Positions 610-17,811 of a DNA stretch of 32,000 nt are shown one piece after another. The first letter of the stretch is position 1; the number at the start of each line of letters is the position of its first letter. The notes under the pieces were generated by a model. The model was not told where the DNA came from. It searched no databases and saw nothing but the letters and a program-made list of their open reading frames with translations. The translations under genes were made by a program, and so were the position numbers. Source of the stretch: Geobacter metallireducens GS-15 (GTDB taxonomy: Bacteria > Desulfobacterota > Desulfuromonadia > Geobacterales > Geobacteraceae); NCBI RefSeq assembly GCF_000012925.1, contig NC_007517.1:240001-272000 (forward strand), read 5' to 3'.

Positions 610-648
610 GAAAACGCGCCTTTTCGCAATCTCTGAATCATGACATCA

Positions 649-670
649 GGGACACGGTTCGCCGTGTCCC
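649..670 (+). other. 9-bp perfect stem-loop with TTCG loop directly after argG (possible attenuator or mRNA-stabilising hairpin)
   Basis: GGGACACGG-TTCG-CCGTGTCCC read directly from the sequence. Only a weak T tract follows (TTCGTCTAT), so it is not a clear intrinsic terminator. Confidence 0.4.
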
Positions 671-682
671 TTCGTCTATCCC

Positions 683-1126
683 ATGACCAAGAAGACTTTC
701 AAGAAAGACCACATAGTCACCTCTGTCGTGGCGGTCATCGTGGACGATGACGGGCAGGTGCTCCTCACCAAGCGGAACGTGAGCCCCTTCAAGGGCGAAT
801 GGGTCATGCCGGGGGGGAAGATCGATCTGGGCGAGCCGATTATCAAGGCCCTCCAGCGGGAGGTTATGGAAGAGGTGGGGCTTCAGGTGGAGGTGGAGGA
901 CCTGGTCGACGTTTTCGAGCACGTGACGCCGGGTGAGGACAACTACCACTTCATCATCCTCTACTATCTCTGCCACCCCCTCTACTGTGACATCAACCAC
1001 AATCTGGACGAGGTGGAGGAGGCCCGCTGGGTTCCCCGCGGGGAATTGATAAACTACAAGATGCCCCAGGGGGCCAGATTCATCCTTGGGAAAATTTTCC
1101 CGGAACTCTGCAGCTGCGAGACGTGA
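683..1126 (+). CDS. NUDIX hydrolase
   Basis: The 147-aa ORF carries a complete Nudix box, GKIDLGEPIIKALQREVMEEVGL, fitting GX5EX7REUXEEXGU. Confidence 0.85.
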   Translation: MTKKTFKKDHIVTSVVAVIVDDDGQVLLTKRNVSPFKGEWVMPGGKIDLGEPIIKALQREVMEEVGLQVEVEDLVDVFEHVTPGEDNYHFIILYYLCHPLYCDINHNLDEVEEARWVPRGELINYKMPQGARFILGKIFPELCSCET

Positions 1127-1136
1127 CGAGGTCTCC

Positions 1137-2300: not shown

Positions 2301-2363
2301 GGGAATTAAAAACCTCGTTCCTGAAAATATCAGCAAAAACGCTCTGAATTGAAGGAGATAACC

Positions 2364-3740
2364 ATGACACACGAAAAACTCTGGGGCGGCCGCTTTTCCG
2401 AACCCACCGACAAATTCGTCGAGGAGTTCACCGCTTCCATCGATTTCGACAAGCGGCTCTACCACCAGGATATCCGCGGCTCCATCGCCCACGCCCGCAT
2501 GCTCGGCAAGCAGGGTATTATCCCCATGGAGGATGTGGAGAAGATCACGGCCGGCCTCCAGGAGATTCTGCGCCAGATCCAGGGGGGGCAGTTCAAGTTC
2601 TCGGTGGCCCTGGAAGACATCCACATGAACATCGAGGCCCGTCTCTCCGAGAAAATCGGCGAGGCCGGCAAGCGCCTCCACACCGGCCGTTCCCGCAACG
2701 ACCAGGTGGCCCTCGACATCCGCCTCTATCTGCGGGACGAGATCGTGGAGGTTTCGGCCTACCTCGACCTGCTGGTGGATTCCCTCATTTCCCAGGCCGA
2801 AAAGAACTTGGGGGTCATCATGCCTGGGTATACCCACCTCCAGACCGCCCAGCCGATTCTCTTCTCCCACCACATGATGGCCTATGTGGAGATGTTCAGC
2901 CGGGACAAGGGGCGGATGGAGGACTGCCTGCGGCGTATGAACGTCCTTCCCCTGGGGGCCGGAGCCCTGGCGGGAACCACTTTCCCCATCGACCGGGAGC
3001 ATGTGGCCGAGATTCTGGACTTCCCCGAAGTGACCCGCAATTCCCTCGACTCGGTTTCGGACCGGGACTTCGCCCTGGAGTTTATGGCTGCCTCGTCGAT
3101 ACTGATGATGCACCTCTCCCGCTTCTCCGAGGAGTTGATTCTCTGGTCCACCAGCGAGTTTAAGTTCGTGGACCTTTCCGACTCCTTCTGCACCGGCTCC
3201 TCCATCATGCCCCAGAAGAAGAACCCGGACGTGCCGGAGCTGGTCCGCGGCAAGACCGGCCGGGTCTACGGCAACCTCATGGCGCTCCTCACGGTCATGA
3301 AGGCCCTTCCCCTTGCCTACAACAAGGATATGCAAGAGGACAAGGAGCCCCTCTTCGACACCATCGACACCGTGAAGGGGAGCCTGAAGATATTTGCCGA
3401 CATGGTTGGCGAGATGCGGATCAACACCGGGAATATGCGCGCCGCAGCGGCCAAGGGGTTTTCCACCGCCACTGATGTGGCCGATTACCTTGTCCGCAAG
3501 GGGATGCCGTTCCGCGATGCCCATGAGGTGGTGGGCAAGACCGTGGCTTACTGCCTCTCCAACGGCAAGGACCTGCCGGACCTGACTCTTGGGGAATGGC
3601 AAGGATTCTCCGATAAAATCGGGGAAGATATCTTCGGCTGCATCACCCTCGAGGCATCGGTAAATGCCCGGTCCGCCACCGGCGGTACTGCGTTGGAGCG
3701 GGTGAAGGCCGAGATCGCGCGGGTCAAGGCGGGCAGATAA
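2364..3740 (+). CDS. argH: argininosuccinate lyase
   Basis: The ATG at 2364 is preceded by GAAGGAG; the track start at 2349 is a TTG. The N-terminus is [11 protein letters not shown]. The fumarate-lyase signature [12 protein letters not shown] is present. Confidence 0.95.
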
Positions 3741-3799
3741 TCCCTTGGGATAACCATCAACGAGCGGGCGGGGCATCCCCCGCCCCCACGGACGGACAG

Positions 3800-4552
3800 A
3801 TGATAGCCAGATATCTTGTGATAGTAGGGTTGCTCCTCCTTGCGGCATGCGGCAAGAAGGGGCCGCTGGTTCCCCCCGAAAGCTTCGCGCCGGCGCCGGT
3901 GAGCGCCCTGTCGGTTGAGCAGAAGGAGGATGCGTTCTATGTTTCCTGGCCCGCTCCCTCCAAGGATGAGGCGGGACGCCCGCTGAAGGAGCTGGCCGGC
4001 TTCAGGGTCTTTCGCCGTCCGGTACTTCCCCCCGATCAGGATTGCGAGGAGTGCCCCACGGCCTATACCGTCGTGAAGACCGTGGACCTGGAATATCCGC
4101 AGGATGTGCGATTCTATAACAACCGTTACGTCTTTGCCGACCGCAATCTGACAGACGGCGTGACCTACCAGTACAAGGTGGTTTCCTTCCGCAGGGACGG
4201 CTCCGAGAGCGCCGCCTCCAACCGGGCGCGCCGCGCAAAGGTTACCGCCCCGCCCGCTCCGCACCTCTCTGCGGCTGCCGGACCCACCAGTGTGGTGCTG
4301 CAATGGGAGCCCCCCTCCGGGACCGTCGGCAAACCGGTGGGGGCCTATGTCTATCGCTGCCGCGGCGAAGCTGTTTCCACCCTGGTCCTCCTTACGCCGA
4401 CGCCGGTCGTAGAACGCCAGTATGAAGATCTTCGGCTGGAACGGGGTGTCACCTATGTTTACACGGTGCGGGAGGTCGTTGACATCGACGGCATGCCGGT
4501 TGAAAGCGCTGTTTCCAACGAAGTCAGGGGGATGCTGGCTGAACCGGAGTGA
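3800..4552 (+). CDS. lipoprotein with LptM/YifL-like N-terminal motif and two fibronectin-III-like repeats
   Basis: Signal peptide with lipobox LLAAC, followed by CGKKGPLVPP (compare E. coli LptM CGLKGPLYFPP). Two repeats end in Y.Y.V......G.ES..S patterns. Confidence 0.7.
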   Translation: MIARYLVIVGLLLLAACGKKGPLVPPESFAPAPVSALSVEQKEDAFYVSWPAPSKDEAGRPLKELAGFRVFRRPVLPPDQDCEECPTAYTVVKTVDLEYPQDVRFYNNRYVFADRNLTDGVTYQYKVVSFRRDGSESAASNRARRAKVTAPPAPHLSAAAGPTSVVLQWEPPSGTVGKPVGAYVYRCRGEAVSTLVLLTPTPVVERQYEDLRLERGVTYVYTVREVVDIDGMPVESAVSNEVRGMLAEPE

Positions 4553-4595
4553 AGGGAACGAGAGGAACTGCCATAGCCGGTAAGCTTCTAATCTT

Positions 4596-4626
4596 TTGAC
4601 TTTTTAACGGCTTCCATGGTAAAAAT
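4596..4626 (+). promoter_or_regulatory. candidate sigma70 promoter for dapA
   Basis: TTGACT (4596-4601), a spacer of 18-19 nt depending on register, then TAAAAAT (4620-4626), about 125 nt upstream of the dapA start. Confidence 0.35.
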
Positions 4627-4749
4627 ACCCACTTTTGTTTCGGTGTGGCAATGAAACACCTTTTTATACATTGGGCAAGCTGAGGATTACTGACAGATTT
4701 TTTGCAAAACGGGCTATCACAAAGATCGCCCCCACATAGGAGGTTTCAT

Positions 4750-5622
4750 ATGTTCAAGGGAAGCATCGTCGCCATCGTCACCCCGTTCAATAACGGCCAG
4801 GTGGATTTTGAGAAACTGCGGGAACTGGTCGAATTCCAGATCTCCAACGGTACCGACGCCATCGTCCCCTGCGGCACCACCGGCGAGGCTTCGACCCTGG
4901 ACTACGACGAGCACATGGATGTGGTGAAGACCGTCATCGAGCAGGTCAACAAGCGGGTTCCGGTCATTGCCGGCACCGGCTCCAACTCCACCGCCGAGGC
5001 CATCGAGCTTTCCCAGAAGGCCAAGGAGGTCGGGGCCGACGGCGTGCTGCTCGTCACCCCTTACTACAACAAGCCGACCCAGGAGGGGCTCGTTCGCCAC
5101 TACACCGCCATCGCCGATGCCGTGGCCATACCCCAGATCCTTTACAACGTGCCGGGACGCACCGGCGTCAACATGCTCCCCGAAACCGTGGCCCGGCTGG
5201 CGCCCCACAAAAACATCGTCGCCATCAAGGAGGCCACCGGCTCGCTCCAGCAGGCATCTGAGATTCTGGCGCTTTGCGGCGATAAGATCGACGTTCTCTG
5301 CGGCGACGACTTCATCACCTTTCCCATGATGGCCTGCGGCGCCAAGGGGGTCATCTCGGTGCTGGCCAACATCATGCCCAAGACCGTGGCCGAACTGACA
5401 GATGCCTTTTACGCCGGGGACATGGAGAAGGCCCGTCAGCTCCACCTGCAAACCCTCAAGATCGGCAATGCCATGTTCATCGAGTCGAACCCGATTCCGG
5501 TGAAAACCGCCCTCGGCCTTATGGGCAAGTGCTCCGACGAGGTGCGGCTCCCGCTTTGCCCCATGGGTGCGGCCAACAAAGAGAAGCTTGCGGCCATCAT
5601 GAAAGAGTACGAACTAATCTAA
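4750..5622 (+). CDS. dapA: 4-hydroxy-tetrahydrodipicolinate synthase
   Basis: The ATG at 4750 is preceded by AGGAGG; the track ORF starts at an upstream TTG. Motifs GTTGE, YNVPGRTG and AIKEATGS (Schiff-base Lys) are present. Confidence 0.95.
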   Translation: MFKGSIVAIVTPFNNGQVDFEKLRELVEFQISNGTDAIVPCGTTGEASTLDYDEHMDVVKTVIEQVNKRVPVIAGTGSNSTAEAIELSQKAKEVGADGVLLVTPYYNKPTQEGLVRHYTAIADAVAIPQILYNVPGRTGVNMLPETVARLAPHKNIVAIKEATGSLQQASEILALCGDKIDVLCGDDFITFPMMACGAKGVISVLANIMPKTVAELTDAFYAGDMEKARQLHLQTLKIGNAMFIESNPIPVKTALGLMGKCSDEVRLPLCPMGAANKEKLAAIMKEYELI

Positions 5623-5631
5623 ATTCAAAGT

Positions 5632-5722
5632 CCGCCACAGAGGCACAGAGAAACGGAGAAAGCTGTGTTTGCCAGGCATTGACGCTGAGGTTTTTCTCTG
5701 TGTCTCCGTGTCCCTGTGGCGG
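5632..5722. repeat. imperfect inverted repeat (REP-like element) in the dapA-dapB spacer
   Basis: Left arm CCGCCACAGAGGCACAGAGAAA (5632-5653). Right arm TTTCTCTGTGTCTCCGTGTCCCTGTGGCGG (5693-5722). The ends are complementary (TTTCTCTGTG and CTGTGGCGG), with an insertion in the right arm. Confidence 0.5.
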
Positions 5723-5736
5723 AAGTGAGGTTTTTT

Positions 5737-6537
5737 ATGGTGAAAATCGCTGTCTGCGGCGCCGCCGGGCGCATGGGCCAGAGGATTATCGTTGCTGCCA
5801 AAGAGGCGGGATGCACAGTTTCCGGCGCCCTGGAGCGGCCGGGCCACGAGCTGGTGGGACAGGATGCCGGGCTTATCGCCGGCTGCGGCGCCCTGGGCGT
5901 CGCCATTTCCGATGACCTGAATGCCGTTGTTGATGGGTGCGACGTCCTCATCGACTTCACCACCCCCAAGGTTTCCCTCAAGAACCTGGAGGCCTGCGCC
6001 CTCAAGAAAAAGGCCATCGTCATCGGTTCTACCGGCTTTACCCCCGAGGAGCGCGCCCTGGCCGCCGAACTGGCGAAAGATATCCCCGCGGTGCTGGCCC
6101 CCAACATGAGCGTCGGGGTCAACGTCTGCTTCAAGATCCTGAAGGACGTGGCCAAGACCCTGGGTGACGACTTCGACGTGGAGATCGTGGAGCTGCACCA
6201 CAACAAGAAGAAGGACGCCCCCTCCGGCACCGCCGTCCGCATGGGAGAGGTGGTGGCCGAGGCCCTGGGCCGCGACTACAACAAGGTGGCCAATTACCAC
6301 CGCGAGGGGATCTGCGGCGAGCGGACGAAGGAAGAGATCGGCATGCAGACCGTGCGCGGCGGCGACATTGTCGGCGAACACACCGTCTACTTCATCGGCA
6401 TGGGCGAGCGGATCGAGATCAGCCACCGGGCCATGACCCGTGACATGTTCTCCCGTGGCTCCGTTCGCGCCGCCCAGTGGGTGGTGGGGAAGGCGCCGGG
6501 GCTCTACGACATGCAGGATGTCCTGGGCCTTCGGTAG
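5737..6537 (+). CDS. dapB: 4-hydroxy-tetrahydrodipicolinate reductase
   Basis: The ATG at 5737 is preceded by GTGAGG. N-terminus MVKIAVCGAAGRMGQ. The motif ELHHNKKKDAPSGTA is present. Confidence 0.95.
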   Translation: MVKIAVCGAAGRMGQRIIVAAKEAGCTVSGALERPGHELVGQDAGLIAGCGALGVAISDDLNAVVDGCDVLIDFTTPKVSLKNLEACALKKKAIVIGSTGFTPEERALAAELAKDIPAVLAPNMSVGVNVCFKILKDVAKTLGDDFDVEIVELHHNKKKDAPSGTAVRMGEVVAEALGRDYNKVANYHREGICGERTKEEIGMQTVRGGDIVGEHTVYFIGMGERIEISHRAMTRDMFSRGSVRAAQWVVGKAPGLYDMQDVLGLR

Positions 6538-6679
6538 GAGGAATGCCGCTTTTTGCCAATCTCGGCGTTTTCTGCGTCATCGCGTGTGCGACGTAGCGCT
6601 GCTACGTCTCCGTGCTCTTCCTTGACGCCTTGACCTTGGCGAAAAATCGACATCCCGTAGGTTAAACCGAAAACCTTGA

Positions 6680-7975
<1,296 letters not shown>

Positions 7976-7984
7976 GATGAATCG

Positions 7985-8013
7985 AAAGGGCGCCCGTTGC
8001 GGCGCCCTTTTTA
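7985..8013 (+). terminator. intrinsic terminator after dapL
   Basis: AAAGGGCGCC-CGTTGC-GGCGCCCTTT followed by TTA. Confidence 0.7.
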
Positions 8014-8099
8014 TATTGTGGTCAGGAGCTGGGAAATTTTTCCCGTTGACGCAATGCTTGACTATGTTATTGTAGGACATATGTTCAGGAGGTAGTGTT

Positions 8100-8387
8100 G
8101 TGGGTGCGGTCCTTGTCTTTAGGGACAAGAAGGTCAAGGAGGGGCTGATCATCGAACTGGTGGTCTGGGAGCTTGACGCCCCCTTGAGTGGGTCAAGCCA
8201 TCCTTTCAAGTACCGGCTCTTTTGCGGCAGCCTGGAAACCGGCACATGCCTGGTCAGATATGACAACGAGCGGGGGAAGGGCGACCATCGACACGTTGCG
8301 GATGAGGAGCAGCCGTACCAGTTCACAAGCCTGGAAGTGTTGTTTGCCGATTTCGAAAAAGACGTCAGGGAGGCGATGAAAAAATGA
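8100..8387 (+). CDS. TumE-like (DUF6516-like) putative toxin
   Basis: GTG start 7 nt after AGGAGG. The 95-aa protein contains FKYRLF...RYDNERGKGDHRH, which I recall as the hallmark of DUF6516/TumE-family proteins. It overlaps the next gene by 4 nt (ATGA). Confidence 0.55.
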   Translation: MGAVLVFRDKKVKEGLIIELVVWELDAPLSGSSHPFKYRLFCGSLETGTCLVRYDNERGKGDHRHVADEEQPYQFTSLEVLFADFEKDVREAMKK

Positions 8388-8746
8388 AACGGGATATAAA
8401 GGTTGGAATCAAATCTGACGATGAATTCTTTGCCGAAGCGAGAGAATTCGCCCGCAAGCTGGATACAGGCTGGAGGCCGGAGCAGCCGGTCGAAAGTCTC
8501 TATTTCGAGGATCTGCCGACGCTTCTCAAGTATCTCACTCCGAAGCGGTTCGAGCTGCTCAACACCCTGCACTCCGTGGGGCATGTGAGTATCAACGCCC
8601 TGGCAAAGAAACTTCACCGGCAATACCGCAATGTCTTTGATGATGTGAAGACGCTGGAGCGGCTGGGACTGGTGGAGAAGGACGAGGAGAGCCGGTTCTT
8701 CGTCCCCTGGGACGAGATCGATGCGACCTTCCGCTTGGCGGCGTGA
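8384..8746 (+). CDS. HTH DNA-binding protein, putative cognate antitoxin (HVO_A0114/MarR-like)
   Basis: 120 aa, translationally coupled to the upstream gene. Winged-helix-like segment LTPKRFELLNTLHSVGHVSINALAKKLHRQYRNVFDDVKTLERLGLVEK. Confidence 0.55.
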   Translation: MKRDIKVGIKSDDEFFAEAREFARKLDTGWRPEQPVESLYFEDLPTLLKYLTPKRFELLNTLHSVGHVSINALAKKLHRQYRNVFDDVKTLERLGLVEKDEESRFFVPWDEIDATFRLAA

Positions 8747-8749
8747 GGG

Positions 8750-8777
8750 GAGTTAAACAAGCTGTGCCGGGAATTTC
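8750..8777 (+). repeat. island repeat copy 1 (GAGTTAAACAAGCTGTGCCGGGAATTTC)
   Basis: Starts 4 nt after the stop of the HTH gene. Matches copy 2 at 23 of 28 positions. Confidence 0.7.
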
Positions 8778-8788
8778 AGGAGATTCAT

Positions 8789-9100
8789 ATGGCTACTTCA
8801 GTTGATATTCAAAATATTTCCAATCAGATTCGCAGGGAGTTCGCACCCCGGAAAATTATCCTGTTCGGTTCCCATTCTTGGGGTACGCCGTCGGACGATT
8901 CGGATGTCGATCTTCTGGTAATTGCGGATTTCGAGGGGAAACCGTGGCGTTTTGCCGTTGAGATCAGGGAGCGCATCAGAGCCACTATCCCGCTTGATTT
9001 GATGGTGCGTACACCGGAGCAGCTCCGGGAACGTTTGGCCAAGCACGATATGCTGCTGACCGAAATTGTCGACCGCGGCACGGTGCTGTATGAAGCCTGA
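8789..9100 (+). CDS. nucleotidyltransferase-domain protein (MNT-type antitoxin)
   Basis: Motif GSHSWGTPSDDSDVDLLV (GSx..G..SDxDLLV). AGGAG RBS upstream. Overlaps the HEPN gene by 11 nt. Confidence 0.85.
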   Translation: MATSVDIQNISNQIRREFAPRKIILFGSHSWGTPSDDSDVDLLVIADFEGKPWRFAVEIRERIRATIPLDLMVRTPEQLRERLAKHDMLLTEIVDRGTVLYEA

Positions 9101-9491
9101 GACTGCCGAATTGACGAGCAAGGCTGATGCGGACCTTGCCACGGCGCAACGTGAGGCCTCGGTTGATGACGCGCCGAATTTCGATGAGGTCTGTTTTCAC
9201 GCCCAGCAGTGTGCCGAGAAATATCTGAAGGCCATTATGGTGGAGACGGGCGTGCGCGTACCACGCATCCATGATCTTGAGGCGCTGGTCAATTTGTTGT
9301 TCGGGGAATATCCAGGATTGGAGCGGATTCTGCGCTTCGCCAGAATACTGTCGGCAATGGCGGTTGAGGTCAGGTATCCGGGAATGACGGCTGATGAGGA
9401 TGATGCTACGGAGTCGCTCAAGGCTGCGACGTTGATTCGTGAGGCAGTGCAGGAGATTTTGTGCGGTTCTGGGGATGCTGGAGTTAAATAA
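9090..9491 (+). CDS. HEPN-domain protein (toxin partner of MNT)
   Basis: The ATG at 9090 is preferred over the TTG at 9066. Rx4H motif in RVPRIHDL. This is the typical MNT-HEPN gene order. Confidence 0.8.
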   Translation: MKPETAELTSKADADLATAQREASVDDAPNFDEVCFHAQQCAEKYLKAIMVETGVRVPRIHDLEALVNLLFGEYPGLERILRFARILSAMAVEVRYPGMTADEDDATESLKAATLIREAVQEILCGSGDAGVK

Positions 9492-9508
9492 ACTGTCCCC
9501 GGAATTCC
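9481..9508 (+). repeat. island repeat copy 2 (GAGTTAAATAAACTGTCCCCGGAATTCC)
   Basis: Overlaps the HEPN stop codon (TAA at 9489-9491). Contains the palindrome CGGAATTCCG. Confidence 0.7.
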
Positions 9509-9716
9509 GCCCCAAGCGGCTCGGGAGGTCCGGGTTGGGTGATTGAGGGAGTGCCCGAACCCTTCAGTCTTGAGGTGACCGGTGCCAGCGAGATAGCCCG
9601 GAGTGAGGAGGCCAATCAATCTGGGACGAGGTTGTGTTTGGCAGAGTGCGAGAGGGCGGGGATGAGATGTAACTTGGCATCTTGGAAGCCTGACCCCGGA
9701 CCCTGACCGGAGGGAA

Positions 9717-9740
9717 ATAAGTAAGGTGTCCCCGGAATCC
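9717..9740 (+). repeat. island repeat copy 3 (ATAAGTAAGGTGTCCCCGGAATCC)
   Basis: Shares TGTCCCCGGAAT with copies 1 and 2. Bases 9718-9733 are a perfect 16-nt inverted repeat of 10851-10866. Confidence 0.7.
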
Positions 9741-9806
9741 CCCCGGAATCCCCGTGCCGGAATCCCCGCCCCCGAATCCCCGGAATCCGGGATGTCCCCG
9801 GAATCA
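9732..9806 (+). repeat. irregular tandem array of six CCGGAATC(C) units
   Basis: Units start at 9732, 9743, 9757, 9771 (variant CCCGAATCC), 9780 and 9798. The spacings are 11, 14, 14, 9 and 18 nt. Confidence 0.75.
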
Positions 9807-9872
9807 TCGGGATCATGGGCAAGGAGGAAATTTGTGCTTCTATCAAGAAGCATCAGGGGAGGGTCGATTGAA

Positions 9873-10811
9873 ATGGTATGGATGCGCTTTAGATTTCGTT
9901 TTGCCATTCTTTTTCTTTCCATGTCGTTTTTATTGTCCCGAACAGTCCATGGGGCCGGTGGGCCCAGTGGTGGAGCGGCCCAGAATATGGAACCGCGCCT
10001 TGCCGTCACCCCGGCGGTCATGGATTATGCCGTCAATACGGTAAAGCCGGTCCTTGACGCCAGTCCGGACAAAGACCGTCTGTCGCAACTGCTGAAAGTG
10101 GTGGATGTGCTCAAGGACCCGAAAATGGGCGTGGACGTCAACCGGATAGCACCCGATGCCTACTTCATCTACAACCTTCTCGACAAGGTCAAGCTGGGAT
10201 TTCTCTACACCTGGAAGTTTTCTCCGGAGCAAAAAGAGATGCTGCAGCGCTGGCATGGAAAGTACATGAACGAACATCCTGCCGACGTCTTTTTTGCCCC
10301 CACGGCCGATGAAATTATCAAAACCAGGGCCGGTTTCGGCTGTACACACTATGCCCGGGCATTCATCGCCGTCGTCAAGGCCCTCGGGCTGGTGGAAAAG
10401 CCGGAAGACCTGCGCTATGTGGTGTCCAGCAAAGCCGATGACTATAATCGTGCCCTGGAAAAGCAGGACATGGAGAAGACCATAAACGGTCATCAATTCG
10501 TGCTGGTGAAGATCGACTCAAGATGGATCGCCATCAATACGTCCCAGAGGGAAGAAGCGGTGAACATGCCCGAGGGATTTTCGCCGGAATCCTGCAGCCC
10601 GCCCCAAAACATTCCCGTCAGGTTCGAGTCCTATCCTGCGGGGATCATTTTTCTGCTCAGGAAAATCGGCAAGGACTTCAACGATGATTGCGGCGACATT
10701 TCCCTGGCAAATCTCATGAACATCTCGCGGTCGGGCAATACGGAAAACGGAATGTTTTTGTGGGAGCCATATGGAACAGTGAATCAGTCGTTTCCGGGCC
10801 GTCGGACTTGA
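9873..10811 (+). CDS. secreted transglutaminase-like / papain-fold protein (hypothetical)
   Basis: The ATG at 9873 follows GGGGAGGG and gives a signal peptide MVWMRFRFRFAILFLSMSFLLSRTVHG. Candidate Cys and His blocks are GFGCTHYARAFIAVVKALGL and NGHQFVLVKIDSRWIAINTS. The track's upstream extension merely translates the repeats. Confidence 0.5.
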   Translation: MVWMRFRFRFAILFLSMSFLLSRTVHGAGGPSGGAAQNMEPRLAVTPAVMDYAVNTVKPVLDASPDKDRLSQLLKVVDVLKDPKMGVDVNRIAPDAYFIYNLLDKVKLGFLYTWKFSPEQKEMLQRWHGKYMNEHPADVFFAPTADEIIKTRAGFGCTHYARAFIAVVKALGLVEKPEDLRYVVSSKADDYNRALEKQDMEKTINGHQFVLVKIDSRWIAINTSQREEAVNMPEGFSPESCSPPQNIPVRFESYPAGIIFLLRKIGKDFNDDCGDISLANLMNISRSGNTENGMFLWEPYGTVNQSFPGRRT

Positions 10812-10842
10812 TGACCTAGTTCGAGCGCCGTGCTCCCGCACT

Positions 10843-10869
10843 CGAATTCGGGGGACACCTTACTTAATT
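10843..10869 (-). repeat. island repeat copy 4, inverted (minus strand reads AATTAAGTAAGGTGTCCCCCGAATTCG)
   Basis: Reverse complement read directly from the sequence. It is the inverted partner of copy 3. Confidence 0.7.
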
Positions 10870-10874
10870 GGCAG

Positions 10875-10901
10875 GGAATTCCGAGGACATTATGCATAAT
10901 T
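10875..10901 (-). repeat. island repeat copy 5, inverted (minus strand reads AATTATGCATAATGTCCTCGGAATTCC)
   Basis: Direct neighbour of copy 4 on the minus strand. Shares TGTCC.CGGAATTCC with the other copies. Confidence 0.6.
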
Positions 10902-10903
10902 CG

Positions 10904-10928
10904 AAAGGCGGCCAAATGGCCGCCTTTT
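10904..10928. terminator. bidirectional terminator between the island and the decarboxylase gene
   Basis: AAAGGCGGCC-AAAT-GGCCGCCTTT plus T, placed between two convergent genes. Confidence 0.7.
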
Positions 10929-10956
10929 CTGTTTCCTGAGCATATGTGACAATGAA

Positions 10957-12276
10957 TTACAGCGTCACGTCCAGTTCGTTCTGGGTCAGTTGCTCCCGTA
11001 CCTGCTTCTTCCGGATGAGCACCAGTTCGCCGGTTTTGGTCCTCATGACGGCTCCCGGCTTGCGGTGGGAGTTGTAGTTCTCCGGCGACATGCTCTCGGA
11101 GTAGGCGCCGGTGCCGCCGATGACGACGTAGTCGCCGATCTCCGGCTCAACGATCATGACCGGCACGATGTTCCCCTCCTTGTCCAGGCGGACCGAGTCG
11201 CCGCTTTCGCAGCAGCGGCCGACGATGCCGAAGGGCTTCAGCCCCGCCGTGGGGGTCTGGTCGTACTCGCTGGAGAGGAGCGTCCCGTCCTGGCGGACGA
11301 TGGCGATGGGATGCTCGGAGCCGTAGAGGAGCGGCCGGGTCAGTAGCTCCATGCCGCCGTCGACGATGAGGAAGTTCATCTCGTTGGTGAACTTCTTGTC
11401 GATGATGCGAGTGACGATGTGCCCCGAGTTGGCCACCACAAAGGTCCCCGGCTCGATCTCCATCATCAGTTCGCGGCCGGTGGCGGCCTTGAACTCTTCG
11501 ATCCGCTGCTTTGCATAGGCTCCCAGGGTGGCGATGTCGGCCTGCTTCTCGCCCGGCATGCGGGCCACCTTGAGGCCGCCGCCGAAGCTGACGGTGACTG
11601 CATCCGGGAAGTAGGTTTTGATGAAGCCGAGCTCCCGGTCGATGTTCTCTTGCCACTTCTCCGGGGCGCCGCCGGAGCCGATATGGACGTGGACCTGGGT
11701 GAAGCGGAGCCCTTTCTCGTCGGCCAGGGCCTTCACGGTCGGGACGTCGCGCAGGTGGACGCCGAAGCAGGAGTACTCGCTGCCGGTGTCGCGGGTGGCG
11801 CTCTCGCCGCCGCCGGCGGCGCCCGGATGGACCCTCATGGAAAGGTCGATCTTGTTCTGGGCGGCAAAGTCGGCGATGAGCTGGTACTGCAGCGTGGAGC
11901 AGACATTGTACTTGAGGCCGACCTTGATCATGGCTTCCAGTTCGGTCCGCTCCTCGCCGGTGGGGACCTCCTGGGTGGTGAGCATCATGCGGCTGTAGGG
12001 GATGCCGGCGGCATGGGCCCGGGCGGCCTCGTCCAGGGATGAGCAGTCCAGGTCCAGCCCCTTGCCGGTGACAATGCGCAGGACGGTGCGGTCAGAGTTG
12101 GCCTTGATGGCGTAGCGGACGTGCAGGCCGTAGGCATTGGGCATGGCAAGCAGCTGGTCGCAGCTGTTCTCGATGTACTGCTGATCGTGGAGGTAAATAG
12201 GGGTTCCCCATTCCCCGGCGATCTTCGGGATAAGCGTTGCGTCGAGTCCGGTCGGACCAAAAGAAGTCATTGTCAT
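10957..12276 (-). CDS. lysA: group IV PLP-dependent decarboxylase, diaminopimelate decarboxylase-like
   Basis: 439 aa with YAIKAN (PLP Lys), HVHIGSGG, FGGGL, EPGTFVV, GRCCESGD and GAYSESMSPENYNSHRKP, in LysA order. GAGG lies 8 nt upstream of the ATG. It lies 3 kb downstream of the dapA-dapB-dapL cluster, separated from it by the island. Confidence 0.65.
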   Translation of the reverse strand: MTMTSFGPTGLDATLIPKIAGEWGTPIYLHDQQYIENSCDQLLAMPNAYGLHVRYAIKANSDRTVLRIVTGKGLDLDCSSLDEAARAHAAGIPYSRMMLTTQEVPTGEERTELEAMIKVGLKYNVCSTLQYQLIADFAAQNKIDLSMRVHPGAAGGGESATRDTGSEYSCFGVHLRDVPTVKALADEKGLRFTQVHVHIGSGGAPEKWQENIDRELGFIKTYFPDAVTVSFGGGLKVARMPGEKQADIATLGAYAKQRIEEFKAATGRELMMEIEPGTFVVANSGHIVTRIIDKKFTNEMNFLIVDGGMELLTRPLLYGSEHPIAIVRQDGTLLSSEYDQTPTAGLKPFGIVGRCCESGDSVRLDKEGNIVPVMIVEPEIGDYVVIGGTGAYSESMSPENYNSHRKPGAVMRTKTGELVLIRKKQVREQLTQNELDVTL

Positions 12277-12557
12277 TCGATCAACCTCATGGATGTGATG
12301 GTGATGTTTGGTTCCAAGATGCCGTCACGGCGGCATGTAAATGTTAATTTACTTTTCTAGCATTTTCCATGGTTGCGGCGCAACAGCTCTTTCACAGGCG
12401 TTCAGAAAACGCCATGGGGCACGCGAGGATTACGGGCAGAACAAGTTCAAAAGGCGGCCAAACGGTGTCTTTGACGAATCTGGAGAAACTTCTTGCTGCC
12501 TGTTACAGGCTGTGGCACACTGTAAGTACTCAATAAGGTGCCGAAAGGAGTGCCAAT

Positions 12558-12827
12558 ATGAATACAATTCCCGCCCAAGAGCTGAAGCGCCGCGGCATTG
12601 CGGCGGTTGACGGCTTGATCGAATCGGGTGACGTCCACGTGATTCGCAACAACCGGCCCGAGTATGTAATTCTCTCCGAGGAGCGCTACCGTGAGCTGGT
12701 GGCCGAGGCCGAAGAGGCGTATCTGGCCAGGGTGAGGGCATCGCTTGAGGATGTGAAGGCGGGACGGGTGCGGCGGTTTGCCTCGGCCGACGAGCTGTTG
12801 CAGGCGCTCGACGCTGAGGGGGAGTAA
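12558..12827 (+). CDS. Phd/YefM-family antitoxin
   Basis: 89 aa with GGAG upstream. N-terminal block ELKRRGIAAVDGLIESGDVHVIRNNRPEYVILSEERY is typical of prevent-host-death antitoxins. The toxin gene starts 2 nt after its stop. Confidence 0.7.
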   Translation: MNTIPAQELKRRGIAAVDGLIESGDVHVIRNNRPEYVILSEERYRELVAEAEEAYLARVRASLEDVKAGRVRRFASADELLQALDAEGE

Positions 12828-12829
12828 CC

Positions 12830-13105
12830 GTGTACAGCGTCACCACATCGGAACAGTTCCTCCGTCAAGCGCGAAAATTCTTCAATAAACACCCCGACTT
12901 GAGACCCCGCTTCGCTGCCATCTTCGAGGCGCTCAAGCTGGATCCATTTCAGCCAGGCCTCGGGCTGCACCAGCTTTCCGGCAAGCTTGCCGGCTGTCAT
13001 GCCGTCAGGCTGACCTATTCCTACCGAATCACCCTGACCCTGCTGATCGCCGAAAAAGAAATCATTCTTCTCGACATTGGCAGCCATGACGAGGTGTACC
13101 GGTAG
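12830..13105 (+). CDS. RelE/ParE-superfamily toxin
   Basis: 91 aa with a GTG start. The pattern ...HQLSGKLAGCHAVRLTYSYRITLTLL...ILLDIGSHDEVYR matches the RelE/StbE C-terminal pattern. Confidence 0.7.
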   Translation: MYSVTTSEQFLRQARKFFNKHPDLRPRFAAIFEALKLDPFQPGLGLHQLSGKLAGCHAVRLTYSYRITLTLLIAEKEIILLDIGSHDEVYR

Positions 13106-13137
13106 TCAGTCCGTAATGACGTAATCGTACCTGCTCC

Positions 13138-14184
13138 CTACTCCCGTACCCAGTGGCAGGTATACCCTCCCGGGTTCTTCACCAGGTAATCCTGATGATA
13201 CTCCTCGGCCCGCCACCAGGGGCCGGCCGGGACGATCTCGGTGACGACAGGCCGCTTCCACTTGCCGCTGGCGTCCACCTCGGCCTTGACCTTTTCCGCG
13301 ATCCGCTTCTGCTCGGCGTCATGGTAGAAGATGGCGCTCCGGTAGCTGCTGCCGATGTCGTTCCCCTGGCGGTTCAAGGTGGTCGGGTCGTGCATCCGGA
13401 AGAAGAACCGCAACAGGGCCTCGTAGCTGGTCTTCGTCGGGTCGAATTCGATCCGCACCGCTTCGGCGTGCCCCTCGTGGTTTTCGTAGGTGGCGTTGGG
13501 CACGCTGCCGCCGGTGTAGCCCACCTCCGTGGCGATCACCCCCGGCTGCTTGCGCAGCAGGTCCTGCATTCCCCAGAAACAGCCTCCGGCCAGGGTCGCC
13601 ACCTGCTTTACTGCCGCTGCCGGCGCCTTCCGGCCGAAGAGGGGGAGATACGAGCCATACCCTTCCTTCTCCAGGTCGTCCACCGGGATGAAGCGGAGCG
13701 CCGCGGAGTTGACGCAGTAACGCAGCCCCCCCTTGTCCCGCGGCCCGTCGGTGAAGAGATGCCCCAGGTGGGAGTCGGCTTCTTTGGAGCGGACCTCGGT
13801 CCGGACCGTGCCGAAGCCGATGTCGGTCTCCTCCTTCACGCTGTTCGGGGCGACCGGCCGGGTGAAGCTGGGCCAGCCGGTGCCGGAATCGAACTTGTCC
13901 CTGGATGAGAAGAGCGGCTCACCGCTGACGATGTCCACATAGAGCCCTTCGCGGTGCTCGTTCCAGTAGGTATTGTCGAAGGGGGGCTCGGTCCCCGATT
14001 TCCTCGTCACGCGGTACTGCAGCGGAGTGAGGCGCTGCTTCAGCTCTTCGTCAGAGTATTTCCTCGCTGTCATCGTCGTCTCCTTTTCTGCTGTTCGGCC
14101 GCCGAAGCGGGGGGGCCTGGCAACAACTGCCAGTATCAGGCAGGCAACAACAAATACCAGAATCGTCAATGCTCGTGTTTTCAT
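13138..14184 (-). CDS. msrAB: bifunctional methionine sulfoxide reductase MsrB-MsrA with N-terminal signal/anchor
   Basis: MsrB blocks ([20 protein letters not shown]) are followed by the MsrA block [10 protein letters not shown]. Hydrophobic N-terminus [21 protein letters not shown]. Confidence 0.9.
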
Positions 14185-14395
14185 CTTTTTCCCCCGATGT
14201 TAAGATTATAGACAATTATCGAGGCATATCCCAGCTCCGTAGCGCCACTCTTTCCGGGATGGGCTTTGGAGACGTTGTCAATTTGATTGTCTACAGCAAG
14301 ACGGCAGCCTATCGGTGGGCAGCCTCCTGCATCGCATGATTCGCGGCCAGCGACCGAGCTGATGGAGAAATTCGAGAAATCCTGCCGTCTGAAAC

Positions 14396-15675
14396 CTACG
14401 CAACGGGTTTTCCTCTGCGCGACCTTGTCAGAAACGACAAGGCGAACCCGACCAGGAGAAACCCGCATCCCATGGCGAAGCTGTAGACGGATGCCCGGCC
14501 CGGATAGAGCTCCGCCGGGTACCGGTCCTTGATCAGGGCCACCAGTTGGGGGCCCGCGATGCCGGCGGCGGACCAGGCGGTGAGGATCGCGCCGTAGACG
14601 GCAGGCATGACCCGAGCGCCGAACATGTCGAGCACGAACGCGGGCATGGTTCCGAAACCGCCGCCGTCGCAGAGGAGCACGTAGCAGACCAGCAGGGCGA
14701 AGTGCCAGGGAGAGTCGGTGCGCATCAGAAGCACGAACGCCAGGAACTGCGAGCCGAGGATCAGCCTGAAGGTCTCGGGCCGGCCGATCCGGTCCGAGAG
14801 TCCCCCCCAGAAAAACCTGCCGACCCCGTTGAACAGTGAACTGGTCGCAATCAGGGTGGCGCCGTACCGCGCCAGGGCCTCTTTTCCCAGCCCCGGACTG
14901 GCCTCGCCGCAGATTTCCTGAAAGAGCGGCGACTGGAAGCCGATGAGAGCGAGCCCGCGGTGATGTTGCAGAAAAAGATCCCCCAGAGAAGCGCAAATTC
15001 CCCGGAGAGAATGCAGGCGCGGGCTCCCCTCCCACCGTCGTCCGGGCCGCTTCCGGCCTGATCCCGCGGCAGGGCATATTCCGGCGGCACCCACCCCGTT
15101 GGAGGGTACCTGACAAAGGTCGCGGCAGGAACGGTCACCAGCAGGAACAGCACCCCCATGACGGCAAACACCGTCACCATGTCCCCGCCCATTTGCGCCA
15201 GGAGCAGAGGTGCGATGACCTTGGACATCAGCAGGGCGCCAAACCCGAACCCCATGACCACCATGCCGGTGGCAAACCCCTTGCGGTCAGGAAACCATCG
15301 GGCCACCGTGGCGACAGGGGTGACGTAGCCGAGCCCGAGTCCGGTCCCTCCGACCACCCCGTAGCCGATATACAGCAGCGGAAGGGAATGCATGCCGAGC
15401 GCCAGGGCCGCCAGGAGATAGCCGGCCCCGAACAGCGCCCCGCCCGCCAGGGCGAGCTTCGTTGGTCCAATCCTCGGCAGCATCATCCCCCCGGCTGCGG
15501 CGGCAAGGCCCAGGAAGCAGATGGCGAGGCTGAAGACCCATGCCACCTGGCTGTTGGTCCAGTGGGTGTCGCAGAACGGCTTCTGGAAGAAGCTCCAGGC
15601 GTACACGGTCCCGAGGCAGACCATGAGCAGCGTGCAGATGATTGCGATCCCCCAGCGGTTGGGCGTCTTTTCCAC
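14396..15675 (-). pseudogene. oxalate/formate antiporter-type MFS transporter interrupted by a -1 frameshift
   Basis: Two overlapping minus-strand ORFs, 14851..15675 and 14396..15094, each carry half of an MFS protein. The sensible sequence switches frame at ...FFCNITAG / LALIGFQSPLFQE, at the run GCGGG-CTC (plus-strand CCC at 14954-14956). Confidence 0.7.
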
Positions 15676-15854
15676 CAGTCATCTGCTTGAGGGCTGCCCC
15701 ACGGAGTCAGGAGAGGTATGGGGCGTATATAGGGGGAGGATAGTTTGTCGAGTCATATTGACGCCCGGAGACTCGCTAGCGTATTTTTGTGCATGGGATT
15801 CTTTACTGATAAACGAAGTCGTCGAGAAGCTCGAGGGAGGATAGTGGTAGGGAA

Positions 15855-16379
15855 ATGAAAATACAGAGATTGACGACCGAAAATCGCCCAAAGGTCTACG
15901 CGCTCCTGCGCGGCGCCTTTCCCAGCAGTGACTATGAAGCCGCACTGGTGCAGAAACTCCATGATAACGGCAGAGTTATCCATGAATGGGTGTGCATCCA
16001 TACCGGGAAGGCCATCGCCTACATCGCCTTTACCAACGCCTACCATGGCCGCGACATCTGCGGGCTGCACCTGGCCCCCATGGCCGTGGCCCCGGAATTC
16101 CAAGGGCGGGGGGTGGGGTCGGAGCTGCTCAGGTTCGCTCTGCGACAGGAGGCGATCAGCAGCCAGCCCCTCTTCGTTCTGGGTGAGCCAGGCTATTACA
16201 GCCGGTTCGGCTTTGAGCCGTGCCGTGTGCCCATCTGCCCCTTCGACAAGAACAACGCGCATTTCCTGAGCATGCGCAACGCCACCGCCACCAGTTTCGT
16301 GGTGGGCTATGAGCCCGAGTTCACAACCGCTGCCGCACCGACTGGAACTACCCGGAGCAGGAAGCGTGGGAGACGGTGA
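15855..16379 (+). CDS. GNAT-family N-acetyltransferase (YhbS-like)
   Basis: 174 aa. Acetyl-CoA binding block VAPEFQGRGVGSELL. Confidence 0.8.
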   Translation: MKIQRLTTENRPKVYALLRGAFPSSDYEAALVQKLHDNGRVIHEWVCIHTGKAIAYIAFTNAYHGRDICGLHLAPMAVAPEFQGRGVGSELLRFALRQEAISSQPLFVLGEPGYYSRFGFEPCRVPICPFDKNNAHFLSMRNATATSFVVGYEPEFTTAAAPTGTTRSRKRGRR

Positions 16380-16423
16380 TCGTCGGGAAGGTCCGGATTC
16401 CGGGGACCGTCACGCATTAATTA

Positions 16424-16447
16424 AAAGGCGGCCAGTTTGCCGCCTTT
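16424..16447. terminator. bidirectional terminator between the GNAT gene and the MFS gene
   Basis: AAAGGCGGC-CAGTTT-GCCGCCTTT. It overlaps the stop codon of the minus-strand MFS gene. Confidence 0.6.
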
Positions 16448-17654
16448 ATGGATGGGAACCGACGCCGTGCCGCTGTCTCAAGAACAACCAGACCAGCGGG
16501 GGCAGCACCAGCAGGTAGGCGAAGAAGAGGAGCCGGAAGCTGTTCCCCACCCCGTGGGCATCGGCAAATCGGCCAAGGAGCGGGGCGGTGACGGCGAACA
16601 GCAGCCGGAAGCAGAGGGACTGGAGCGAGAGCATCCCTGCCCGGTTGGCCGACGGGATCTCGGCCTGAGCCACGTGCAGCAGGAACGGCCCCCGCATCCC
16701 CCGCATGGCCGTCAGCAGGTAGTAGAAGAGAAATCCCCACACTCCCGCCGCAAGCCCCAGCCCCAGGTATCCGCCCCAGACGAGGATTATCAGCAGGAAG
16801 ATCATGCCGCGATCGCGGAGCTGCTCCCGCAGCCGGTGGCTGAATACGGCAAAGATGGCCACGGTGAGGTTGGCCCCGGCCCAGATTGGGCCAAAGGAGG
16901 CGAGGGGAACCCCGGCGTTCCGCATGTAGGGCTGGATCAGCCAGACGGGGTAGAAGGAGGAGAGCCCGAGGGCGATGCTGAGGAGGACCGTCACCCGGAG
17001 GCGCCGGTTCTCGATGAAGACGTAACGCGCCGAGGCAAGGGACTCCTTCAGGTGGTTGACCTGGTGGTGCCGCTCGCGGGGCGGTTCGGCCATGCCGCGG
17101 GTGAGGAGGAGCGCCAGGACCCAGACCGCAACCTGGAGCACAAAGGGGAGGAGCGGATAACGGGCGTAGAGCACCCCGGCGAAGAGCGCCCCGGCGGCCT
17201 CGCCGGTCTGGCCGAAGAAGGTGGAGCGCCCCTCGAACCGGCCGTATGCCGCTTCATCCCCCGTCTCCTTGAGGGATTCGTAGAGGAGCGCGCTGTCCGT
17301 GCCGCTGATGAACGAGGTGGAGATGCCGAGGAGGGTCTCGGCGATGAGGACATCCCGGAACGACGAGGCGACCGTGTAGACCCCCCAGCCGGCTATGCCG
17401 AGAACCGACGCCAGGGTCAGGGCGGTGCGGTAGCCGACCCGGTCGCTGATGTAGCCGGAGGGGTACTCCATCACCACCATCGCCACGGCGAAGATGCTCT
17501 GGAGGAGCAGGATCTGGGACAGCGAGAGCCCGATGTGGTCCTTCCAGAAGAGGGTGATGACTGCCATGGGGAACAGGGTCATCTGGAGGAAGGAAAAGCC
17601 GTAGAGGAGGGGAATGTTGCGCCGGAGCGAAGTCATGGCGGCATTATGAAGCAT
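16446..17654 (-). CDS. MFS transporter
   Basis: 402 aa with hydrophobic segments spanning the whole length. Loop motif SGYISDRVGYR, typical of the MFS TM2-TM3 loop. Confidence 0.8.
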   Translation of the reverse strand: MLHNAAMTSLRRNIPLLYGFSFLQMTLFPMAVITLFWKDHIGLSLSQILLLQSIFAVAMVVMEYPSGYISDRVGYRTALTLASVLGIAGWGVYTVASSFRDVLIAETLLGISTSFISGTDSALLYESLKETGDEAAYGRFEGRSTFFGQTGEAAGALFAGVLYARYPLLPFVLQVAVWVLALLLTRGMAEPPRERHHQVNHLKESLASARYVFIENRRLRVTVLLSIALGLSSFYPVWLIQPYMRNAGVPLASFGPIWAGANLTVAIFAVFSHRLREQLRDRGMIFLLIILVWGGYLGLGLAAGVWGFLFYYLLTAMRGMRGPFLLHVAQAEIPSANRAGMLSLQSLCFRLLFAVTAPLLGRFADAHGVGNSFRLLFFAYLLVLPPLVWLFLRQRHGVGSHP

Positions 17655-17811
17655 TCCGGACCAATTATGAAGCGGGAACGTGAGGCAGCCGACGGGCTGC
17701 CGTTGTCGATTCCCCTCTTGCAGTTTTGCACGACTTTACACCACAATGGTTGGGACGGCTGAACGTGGAACGTACGTTTACCCATGGACGGAAGGCGAGG
17801 CGGGCACGAAG

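Follow-up and report, generated by a model that had tools for sequence, protein, structure and literature searches.

Which sequence recurs at the gene boundaries downstream of dapL in Geobacter metallireducens, and does it take part in the turnover of the genes that it separates? The question is raised by a 32,000-nt stretch of the chromosome (hereafter, the window), in which an accessory island is bordered by Gmet_0213 and by a lysA-like gene, Gmet_0219; Aklujkar et al. (PMC2700814) identified the former as dapL and noted the latter as an acquired lysA isoenzyme. An earlier note, made from the letters alone, had reported in this island five copies of one short repeat separating gene modules, mostly toxin-antitoxin pairs, and had compared the arrangement to an integron cassette array or else to some undescribed repeat-mediated system. 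Our analysis points to a different relationship. The repeat is probably the end, of about 27 nt, of an element resembling an insertion sequence (IS) and carrying a Y1 transposase of the RAYT type (tyrosine transposase associated with repetitive extragenic palindromes, REPs), and the copies in the island would be orphan ends at a hot spot of gene turnover. The second suggestion of the earlier note was thus in the right direction, and a candidate enzyme family can now be attached to it, while the integron analogy fails.

Repeat copies in the island

All five copies were found where they had been reported, and their distances to stop and start codons are correct. c1 (8750-8777) begins 4 nt past the stop codon (8744-8746) of a winged-helix (wHTH) gene, c2 (9481-9508) includes the TAA stop codon (9489-9491) of a HEPN gene, and c3 (9717-9740) ends 132 nt ahead of the ATG (9873) of a transglutaminase-like gene, whose stop codon (10809-10811) is followed after 32 nt by c4 (10843-10869) and then by c5 (10875-10901). 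c1, c2 and c3 form a direct-repeat family, c1 and c2 being identical at 23 of 28 positions, and the inverted repeat of c3 and c4 is perfect over 16 nt and stretches to 24 nt at 92%. When the 15-mer core was searched with up to three mismatches, the window gave 10 matches against 1.8 expected, a number that none of 100 shuffles reached. A profile was built from 66 copies of the motif, four of which are the window's own c2 to c5 and the others from other genomes. This profile recognizes c2 to c5 and misses c1, so that the wording "five clear copies" holds for four, the other being degenerate; c1 is nonetheless kept at the same position in G. grbiciae and in Geobacter sp. (locus L218). The palindrome at 8031-8044, which had been proposed as a left-end copy, does exist but has no profile match and was not counted; it lies directly upstream of promoter-like hexamers of the TumE operon. 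On the other hand, the earlier note had overlooked a series of tandem CCCCGGAAT iterations with a partial copy (9730-9809), and a degenerate copy outside the island, c6, which is retained in G. grbiciae and adjoins a terminator just as c5 does.

In the Geobacter DNA sampled, the repeat is not spread evenly as a generic one would be. The profile finds no strong copy in the remaining 29 kb of the window, no copy was found in a 21-kb G. grbiciae locus (L220) that holds two PIN toxin-antitoxin pairs, and in about 120 kb of sampled Geobacter DNA copies occur at only two loci.

The motif as the terminus of a transposase element

A 15-mer scan of genome representatives yielded at least 120 loci, and all counts given below are among the matches listed; none of these 120 is a Geobacter locus. 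The motif has the consensus gAATTAAGTAnnGTGTCCCCGGAATTCC, which can be split as gAATTAAGTAnnG-TGTCCCCGGAATTCC. The consensus of the 66 distinct copies, to which c2 to c5 belong, reads gAATTAAGTAt.gTGTCCCCGGAATTCC, and conservation falls sharply on either side of the 27 nt. Head and core together reach 20 bits or more in 54 of the 120 genome-scan loci listed, as compared with 5 of 85 viral loci that have the same 15-mer. By record titles, with ranks not checked against taxonomy, the hosts fall into about a dozen phyla or candidate phyla; the named lineages include Planctomycetota, classes of Pseudomonadota, Desulfobacterota, Omnitrophota, Thermotogae, Armatimonadota, Elusimicrobia and Chloroflexota. 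Among the cultured hosts are Kordiimonas sediminis and Marinobacterium sedimentorum, and the motif is also present on a Thiodictyon megaplasmid, but plasmids as a whole gave one match in 72,556 records. We rejected a phage or plasmid origin, as the extended patterns have no match in viral contigs, there is this one plasmid match, and the transposase subfamily described next is absent from plasmids.

In other genomes the motif is the terminal repeat of a widespread Y1/RAYT-type transposase element, a relationship that the earlier note had missed. With a hidden Markov model (HMM) built from homologues of the protein encoded at the metagenome locus L234, a RAYT-like open reading frame (ORF) was detected in 15 of the 120 genome-scan loci listed and in none of the 85 viral loci. 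At 8 of the 10 loci with a full-length gene, one copy of the motif overlaps the stop codon in the same orientation as the gene, and an inverted copy is located 0-120 nt upstream. Loci L237 (67% G+C) and L238 provide independent examples of such a bracketed transposase. Between phyla, these proteins share 56-75% identity, with the HUH motif (HVH) and the tyrosine motif RYVELNPVRA both retained. Their only family match is NCBIfam REP_Tyr_transpos, at 61.6 bits and below the curated cut-off of 80. The nearest sequences in the PDB, ISDra2 TnpA and E. coli TnpA-REP, are equally weak matches (E ~0.002-0.005), and the transposase is about 225 aa long, as compared with about 140-155 aa for the PDB chains.

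The limits of the mobile unit are given by two metagenome-assembled genomes that carry two copies of the element each. Between the paralogues L104 and L142, 97% identity sets in within GGAATT iterations that lie immediately outside the upstream copy, while L188 and L215 are 90% identical over 745 nt, with the homology stopping exactly at ...TGTCCCCGGAA on one side and CGGGGACA... on the other. The unit therefore spans about 750 bp and consists of the transposase gene between two inverted ends, in each of which the core lies outermost, with the head on the inside. The head, AATTAAGTA, faces inward and supplies the stop codon of the transposase gene, and TGTCCCCGGAA forms the outer tip.

Some variation in the form of the motif should be considered along with its consensus. 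When metagenomes were scanned with the perfect palindrome GTCCCCGGAATTCCGGGGAC, eight loci were obtained. One organism among them (L230, L234, L236; 60% G+C) has at least 8 copies with the conserved head AATTAAGTAYTG within 1.75 kb; in L234, 8 copies in 1.75 kb surround two small genes and the Y1_Tnp gene, lying between small genes and on both sides of the Y1_Tnp gene. Full palindromes account for 2 of the 66 copies, and a hairpin appears only where inverted copies abut (L234, z = -4.5). Tandem iterations follow 24 of the 66 copies. These are 2-6 repeats of an 8-14-nt unit, often right outside the TGTCCCCGGAA tip (e.g., positions 9730-9809 of the window, L200:6416-6470, L215:~1660-1690, L164 and L237:6740-6790), and the unit begins with the terminal GGAA(T) and continues differently from locus to locus (GGAATTCGC, GGAAGCAC, CCCCGGAATC). 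Repeated cleavage and rejoining might have left the iterations as footprints; alternatively, they could be target duplications that stuttered. At L226:328-377, L231:3640-3691 and L232:892-935 the 20-nt GTCCCCGGAATTCCGGGGAC tips longer perfect hairpins with locus-specific outer stems, some of which look like bidirectional terminators; such hairpins may belong to the motif family or be convergent. At L228:4755-4774 (metagenome, 48% G+C), a perfect palindromic motif separates a terminator from the 3' end of a toxin gene, and this toxin ends in the same LLDIGSHDEVYR as the toxin of the Phd/YafQ pair in the window.

A description of the motif string was not found in the searchable literature, nor was a relevant mention of Geobacter in the searchable RAYT literature, and the supplementary tables of Aklujkar et al. 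(PMC2700814) give no multicopy element next to Gmet_0214-0219.

Variation of the island among relatives

The same locus was reached in other genomes through homologues of the HEPN gene. In G. metallireducens, dapL is followed by TumE-wHTH, c1, MNT-HEPN, c2, a spacer, c3, the transglutaminase-like gene, c4, c5, a terminator, lysA on the minus strand and the Phd-YafQ pair. In G. grbiciae (L217), dapL is followed by an MNT-like gene of 99 aa, then by what is left of the wHTH gene (its last ~78 nt) with c1, next by MNT-HEPN and a copy, and after these by a Gly-zipper gene with an inverted copy behind it, the terminator, lysA on the minus strand and Phd-YafQ. In Geobacter sp. L218, the series begins with an MNT-like gene of 108 aa, which is followed by a copy resembling c1 and by MNT-HEPN; copies and the terminator then stand directly before Phd-YafQ, with neither a cargo gene nor lysA. 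The relatives thus differ module by module rather than sharing an identical block, and the earlier description of the repeat as a boundary marker in a variable accessory region is borne out.

The homology of G. metallireducens with both relatives stops at 8010-8012. Within the island, blastn gives blocks of 8669-9506 and 10876-13120 with G. grbiciae, and of 8737-9508 with Geobacter sp. L218. None of the four internal breakpoints is more than 13 nt away from a copy, and two of them fall inside the 8-bp palindromic GGAATTCC; for G. grbiciae, homology ends at 9506 in c2 and resumes at 10876 inside the GGAATTCC of c5. The slot between the facing ends holds the transglutaminase-like gene in G. metallireducens and the Gly-zipper gene in G. 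grbiciae, while in L218 the two facing ends abut as GGTCCCCGGAATTCCGCGATACA, which reads as the empty state of this slot.

MNT-HEPN lies directly 3' of dapL in five lineages. Trichlorobacter (L239-L241) and L242 (48% G+C) share the dapL-MNT-HEPN order, including a motif copy at the HEPN stop codon, and Trichlorobacter carries in addition an inverted copy beside the lysA terminator, equivalent to c5. As MNT-HEPN and the copy at its stop codon are shared with Trichlorobacter and L242, the frame is old and the filling alone varies.

Some further rearrangements were seen at these loci. At L218:10385-10466, the last five HEPN codons and the motif have been duplicated in tandem, as a unit of 41 bp (AATGCTGGAGTCAAGTAAACTGTCCCCGGAATTCC...). 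The G. grbiciae locus is rearranged on its left side too: at L217:3700-4710, a second RAYT subfamily, above the NCBIfam cut-off at 84.3 bits, sits in dapB just upstream of dapL, beside a DDE-transposase fragment and two reverse-transcriptase genes. It is flanked by inverted ATAATTCAAGAC-CTGACCCCATGGAT and then by five tandem 17-mers (CTGACCCCATGGATGCT).

Interpretation and alternative explanations

We propose that the complete element has as its sole gene a Y1/HUH tyrosine transposase of the RAYT type, between two inverted ends. The copies in the island, being element ends without a transposase in the window, would therefore be orphan ends, three of the right-end type (c1 to c3, plus strand) and two of the left-end type (c4 and c5, minus strand). 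The transglutaminase-like gene would lie outside the element, between two ends that face each other. The region 3' of dapL would be an old hot spot, in which the conserved frame comprises MNT-HEPN, with an end fused to its stop codon, and the facing end beside the lysA terminator, the DNA between facing ends having presumably been inserted, lost or replaced by lineage. A transposase acting in trans, or in the past, would bind and cleave the ends, and modules would be turned over either by breakage and rejoining or through microhomology recombination at the palindromic GGAATTCC tip. The ends are most likely recognized by a Y1/HUH enzyme; we further infer that they mediate the exchange of modules. 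Were this link to hold, hot spots at which accessory and toxin-antitoxin genes turn over could be located in many phyla by one 27-nt tag. For Geobacter, it would account for the differences between species in the lysine-biosynthesis neighbourhood, including the acquired lysA isoenzyme (PMC2700814).

Several observations weigh against this proposal and need to be considered. No transposase or remnant of one was found by tblastn in the 32-kb window, and the RAYT gene that adjoins dapL in G. grbiciae is of another subfamily (31-34% identity) with its own, different flanking repeat. Two of the differences between relatives are not bounded by the motif: the replacement of TumE-wHTH in G. grbiciae has its break inside the wHTH gene, and the insertion of lysA relative to L218 is bounded by a duplicated half-terminator. 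The flanks of lysA are an 18/20 direct repeat of TTCRAAAGGCGGCCAAAYGG, one half of the terminator hairpin (10900-10919 and 12446-12465), which looks like the result of an insertion into, or a duplication of, the terminator. Known substrates of Y1 transposases are hairpins, whereas single copies of the motif form no stable hairpin and fold no better than shuffles (z-scores of -1.0 to +2.0). Finally, different genera have kept the copies at the HEPN stop codon and beside the lysA terminator, which ancient relics or a host function would fit at least as well as active sites.

The first of these alternatives is a serious rival, although on balance we regard it as rather unlikely. The copies would be passive scars, the debris of repeated insertions of the element into a permissive intergenic region after which its gene was lost, without any role in turnover; the differences between relatives would result from illegitimate recombination, and would look motif-bounded since breakpoints and copies are both confined to the ends of genes. 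The lack of a transposase in the window is what such debris would leave, and the transposase is likewise absent within 8 kb in 42 of the 54 motif-bearing loci. The two events at the locus that are clearly independent of the motif, and the conservation of copy positions between Geobacter and Trichlorobacter, fit as well. What speaks against scars is the precision of the variation: four of four internal breakpoints lie that close to a copy, two of them inside the same 8 bp, and two different cargo genes occupy exactly the same slot, whose empty state is a precise abutment of the ends. Moreover, unrelated phyla show the same kind of bracketing around small genes.

One can also go further than our proposal and regard the 27-nt ends and the Y1/HUH transposase as a gene-capture platform that works across phyla, with the DNA between any compatible ends being excised and re-inserted in trans. 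Such a platform would cover both the direct series of right ends after toxin-antitoxin pairs and the inverted facing ends around single genes. In function it would be an integron-like cassette system in which a single-strand HUH enzyme replaces the tyrosine recombinase. We consider this extension improbable.

A host cis-element is still less probable. Here the motif would be the site of a nucleoid or regulatory protein, or a 3'-end element that stabilizes or terminates the MNT-HEPN and lysA transcripts, as proposed for REPs. In its favour, conservation in six lineages is higher in the motif than in the HEPN coding sequence beside it, the motif is always at 3' ends and co-oriented with the upstream gene, and binding of IHF or HU has been proposed for other tandem-repeat elements of the G. 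metallireducens genome (Aklujkar et al., PMC2700814). However, a host element does not explain why the same 27 nt occur in about a dozen phyla beside unrelated genes and specifically bracket a transposase, and neither the folding of single copies, with z near 0, nor Rfam, which gives no family match within the island, lends it support.

Two site-specific systems fare far worse. An exchange of the Xer/dif type would call on XerC and XerD acting at 28-bp sites, as in the pdif modules of Acinetobacter plasmids, and it is true that sites of ~28 nt bound discrete modules here, toxin-antitoxin pairs included, some of them between inverted copies; furthermore, GCATAATGT in c5 and GTTAAAT in c2 resemble parts of the arms of E. 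coli dif. Yet an 11-6-11 dyad with ATAA...TTAT arms is missing from the consensus of the 66 copies, the fragments that recall dif are not shared among the copies, what the motif brackets is the gene of a Y1 transposase and not Xer-dependent elements, and the motif is essentially absent from plasmids, all of which makes this explanation highly implausible. We reject as least probable of all an integron-type array with attC-like sites and an IntI encoded elsewhere, for although the modules lie on one strand, toxin-antitoxin pairs included, and the GTTAAAY that begins c1 and c2 fits GTTRRRY as the earlier note had pointed out, this heptamer is replaced by ATTAAAT or GTCAAGT in the orthologous copies of relatives, no GTTRRRY of the island is preceded at 40-150 nt by a RYYYAAC inverse core, the surroundings of the copies show neither better folding than shuffles nor a hairpin, the conservation lies downstream of the heptamer with the breakpoints ~20 nt further on, in GGAATTCC, rather than between G and TT, Pfam finds no integrase in 19 of the larger ORFs of the window and the called genes of positions 1-17975 (the earlier note had likewise reported neither attC-type structure nor integrase), and the enzyme tied to the motif elsewhere is a Y1/HUH transposase. 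A cargo transposon or miniature inverted-repeat element moved by the ISL3-family IS, the one transposon of the window, was also rejected, as its inverted repeats and the motif are unrelated.

Comparison with known systems

The closest known kind of system is that of REPs, their mosaic assemblies (bacterial interspersed mosaic elements, BIMEs) and RAYTs. RAYTs are defined by a transposase gene between two inverted copies of a repeat (Nunvar et al. 2010, PMC2817692), which is the arrangement seen at the 8 of 10 full-length loci described above. As in REP/BIME systems, the repeat also occurs solo or clustered in extragenic DNA, where most copies directly follow genes and their orientation is alternating or direct. 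RAYTs are almost never found on plasmids (Bertels et al. 2017, PMC5581495), and the same is practically true of the motif and its transposase subfamily. The sole family match of the transposase, REP_Tyr_transpos, points to RAYTs as well, with the reservation that it remains below its cut-off. There are also clear differences. REPs are imperfect palindromes of 20-40 nt, whereas the motif is rarely palindromic (the 2 of 66 copies) and folds with z near 0. The motif seems to lack the GTAG/GTGG tag found at the 5' foot of REP hairpins; the AAGTAnnGTGT of its consensus resembles, but does not equal, the tags of Nunvar et al. (PMC2817692). REPs are species-specific, while one sequence of the motif is conserved across phyla. 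The within-genome paralogues at 90-97% identity are unlike REPs too, and their similarity suggests IS-like copying. It should be noted that RAYT groups 1, 4 and 5 have low-copy flanking 16-mers and a wide taxonomic spread (Bertels et al., PMC5581495), and by analogy the motif-linked family may belong to one of these groups. An element of classical REP form is present near the island as well: Gmet_R1005, in the dapB-dapL intergenic region (window 6589-6609), contains GACGTAGCGCTGCTACGTC, a GTAG-tagged palindrome, and has 24 copies per genome (PMC2700814).

With IS200/IS605 elements, the element shares its minimal content, a Y1/HUH transposase only, its unit of ~750 bp with multiple copies in some genomes, and the PDB sequence match to ISDra2 TnpA. 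IS200/IS605 elements lack terminal inverted repeats and have subterminal hairpins on one strand, in contrast to the 27-nt inverted repeats without significant hairpins that end the present element. It therefore differs from both textbook relatives, in that its ends are inverted, non-palindromic and near-invariant across phyla while its protein has diverged to ~60% identity. The element thus offers a testable substrate for how RAYT-like enzymes recognize DNA and whether passenger genes can be moved.

Other systems are similar in layout rather than in enzyme. Like integron arrays, the island consists of compact modules, often toxin-antitoxin pairs, with one conserved short site between them and a content that varies in relatives, but it has no IntI, attI or attC architecture, and a different enzyme class is tied to the site. 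On Acinetobacter plasmids, modules with toxin-antitoxin pairs among them are delimited by pdif sites of ~28 nt, often as inverted pairs of sites. Copies of the motif also bound such modules and form inverted pairs, but unlike pdif they lack a Xer-type dyad, are chromosomal and are associated with a Y1 transposase. In Neisseria, the short repeats dRS3 and Neisseria intergenic mosaic elements (NIMEs), together with conserved genes, frame the slots of "minimal mobile elements", in which whole genes vary by strain, and transformation together with homologous recombination in the genes on either side is considered responsible for the exchange. A comparable slot is framed in Geobacter by dapL/MNT-HEPN and the lysA terminator. 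The sequence of the motif is, however, unrelated to dRS3 and NIMEs, and we know of no link of these to a Y1 transposase.

Neighbouring genes and the toxin-antitoxin link

A layout like that of the island is found elsewhere. In L238, the order is NicX, copy (+), MNT-HepT, copy (+), MNT-HEPN, copy (+), a 120-aa gene, copy (-), the transposase, copy (+) and Macro. This locus also has a 52-nt duplication (4965-5016 and 5971-6022, 96% identity) that spans the 3' end of MNT and the 5' start of HEPN, lies right after a motif copy and gives the adjoining MNT(108)-HepT pair its start codon; it is a recombination scar inside the array. In a Magnetococcales genome (L137), a RelB-PIN pair lies between inverted copies. 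Other genes bracketed by copies encode a glycosyltransferase, a PQ-loop protein and proteins of unknown function.

The link to toxin-antitoxin genes that the earlier note had drawn is nonetheless not general. Among 100 copy-adjacent genes in other phyla, about six are of toxin type (Fic, PIN, ParE, HEPN_Apea) and the rest are ordinary. That the motif flanks toxin-antitoxin modules in general was thus rejected, as neighbours are mostly ordinary and the two PIN pairs of L220 have no copy; the association is with the transposase element and not with toxin-antitoxin genes as such. Nor does the motif travel with the transglutaminase-like gene, as the contexts of its 66-68% homologues (L092-L096) lack it. 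One of these loci, L095, had been considered as an array of small genes on one strand and was rejected, there being no shared repeat between its genes.

Gene content and other features of the window

The window is 100% identical to contig AGJM01000010.1 of Geobacter metallireducens RCH3 and to several sequencing-run assemblies. The features of the island are summarized in Table 1. The gene assignments made earlier hold by Pfam for TumE, wHTH, MNT and HEPN, while the transglutaminase match is weak (17.8 bits against a cut-off of 23). The best non-self homologue of this last protein is 68% identical, and none is from another named Geobacter.

Table 1. Positions of the repeat copies, genes and terminators of the island and its borders, in window coordinates
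Feature	Position	Strand	Remarks
dapL intrinsic terminator	7984-8011	+	Left limit of variable region
TumE toxin (module 1)	8100-8387	+	Pfam
HVO_A0114-type winged-helix protein (module 1), Gmet_0215 = GSU0164	8384-8746	+	Pfam
c1, degenerate right-end-type copy, GAGTTAAACAAGCTGTGCCGGGAATTTC	8750-8777	+	12 nt before MNT start codon; no profile match
MNT (module 2)	8789-9100	+	Pfam
HEPN (module 2)	9090-9491	+	Pfam; stop codon inside motif head
c2, strong right-end-type copy	9480-9510	+	Profile, 29.4 bits
Non-coding spacer, ~200 nt	9511-9712		Neither homologue in any fetched locus nor transposase remnant
c3, strong right-end-type copy	9713-9742	+	Profile, 29.3 bits; inverted pair with c4 around transglutaminase-like gene
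About six tandem CCCCGGAAT(C) iterations	9730-9809	+	Continue from c3 core; partial core copy at 9792-9804
Secreted transglutaminase-like protein (cargo)	9873-10811	+	Pfam, weak
c4, strong left-end-type copy	10843-10869	-	Profile, 26.8 bits
c5, left-end-type copy	10874-10902	-	Profile, 23.0 bits
Bidirectional terminator hairpin	10903-10928		Common to lysA-like gene
lysA-like decarboxylase, Gmet_0219	10957-12276	-	
c6, degenerate copy outside island	16394-16421	-	Between acetyltransferase stop codon and MFS gene terminator

Outside the island, the Phd-like antitoxin and YafQ/RelE-like toxin pair (Gmet_0220/0221) is located at 12558-13105. The gene of a major facilitator superfamily (MFS) transporter at 14181-15675 (minus strand) is seemingly split, with gene callers giving fragments of 109-182 aa and of 274 aa, and is probably a pseudogene; it is flanked by msrAB and by the acetyltransferase gene that precedes c6. 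The ISL3-family IS has its transposase gene at 21186-22439 and inverted repeats at 21076-21095 and 22424-22443, and an identical transposase is encoded in the G. grbiciae polysaccharide-synthesis locus (L220). Two cyclic di-GMP-I riboswitch aptamers, at 24989-25065 and 31418-31494 (both on the minus strand), score 44.7 and 45.4 bits, respectively, above the Rfam gathering threshold.

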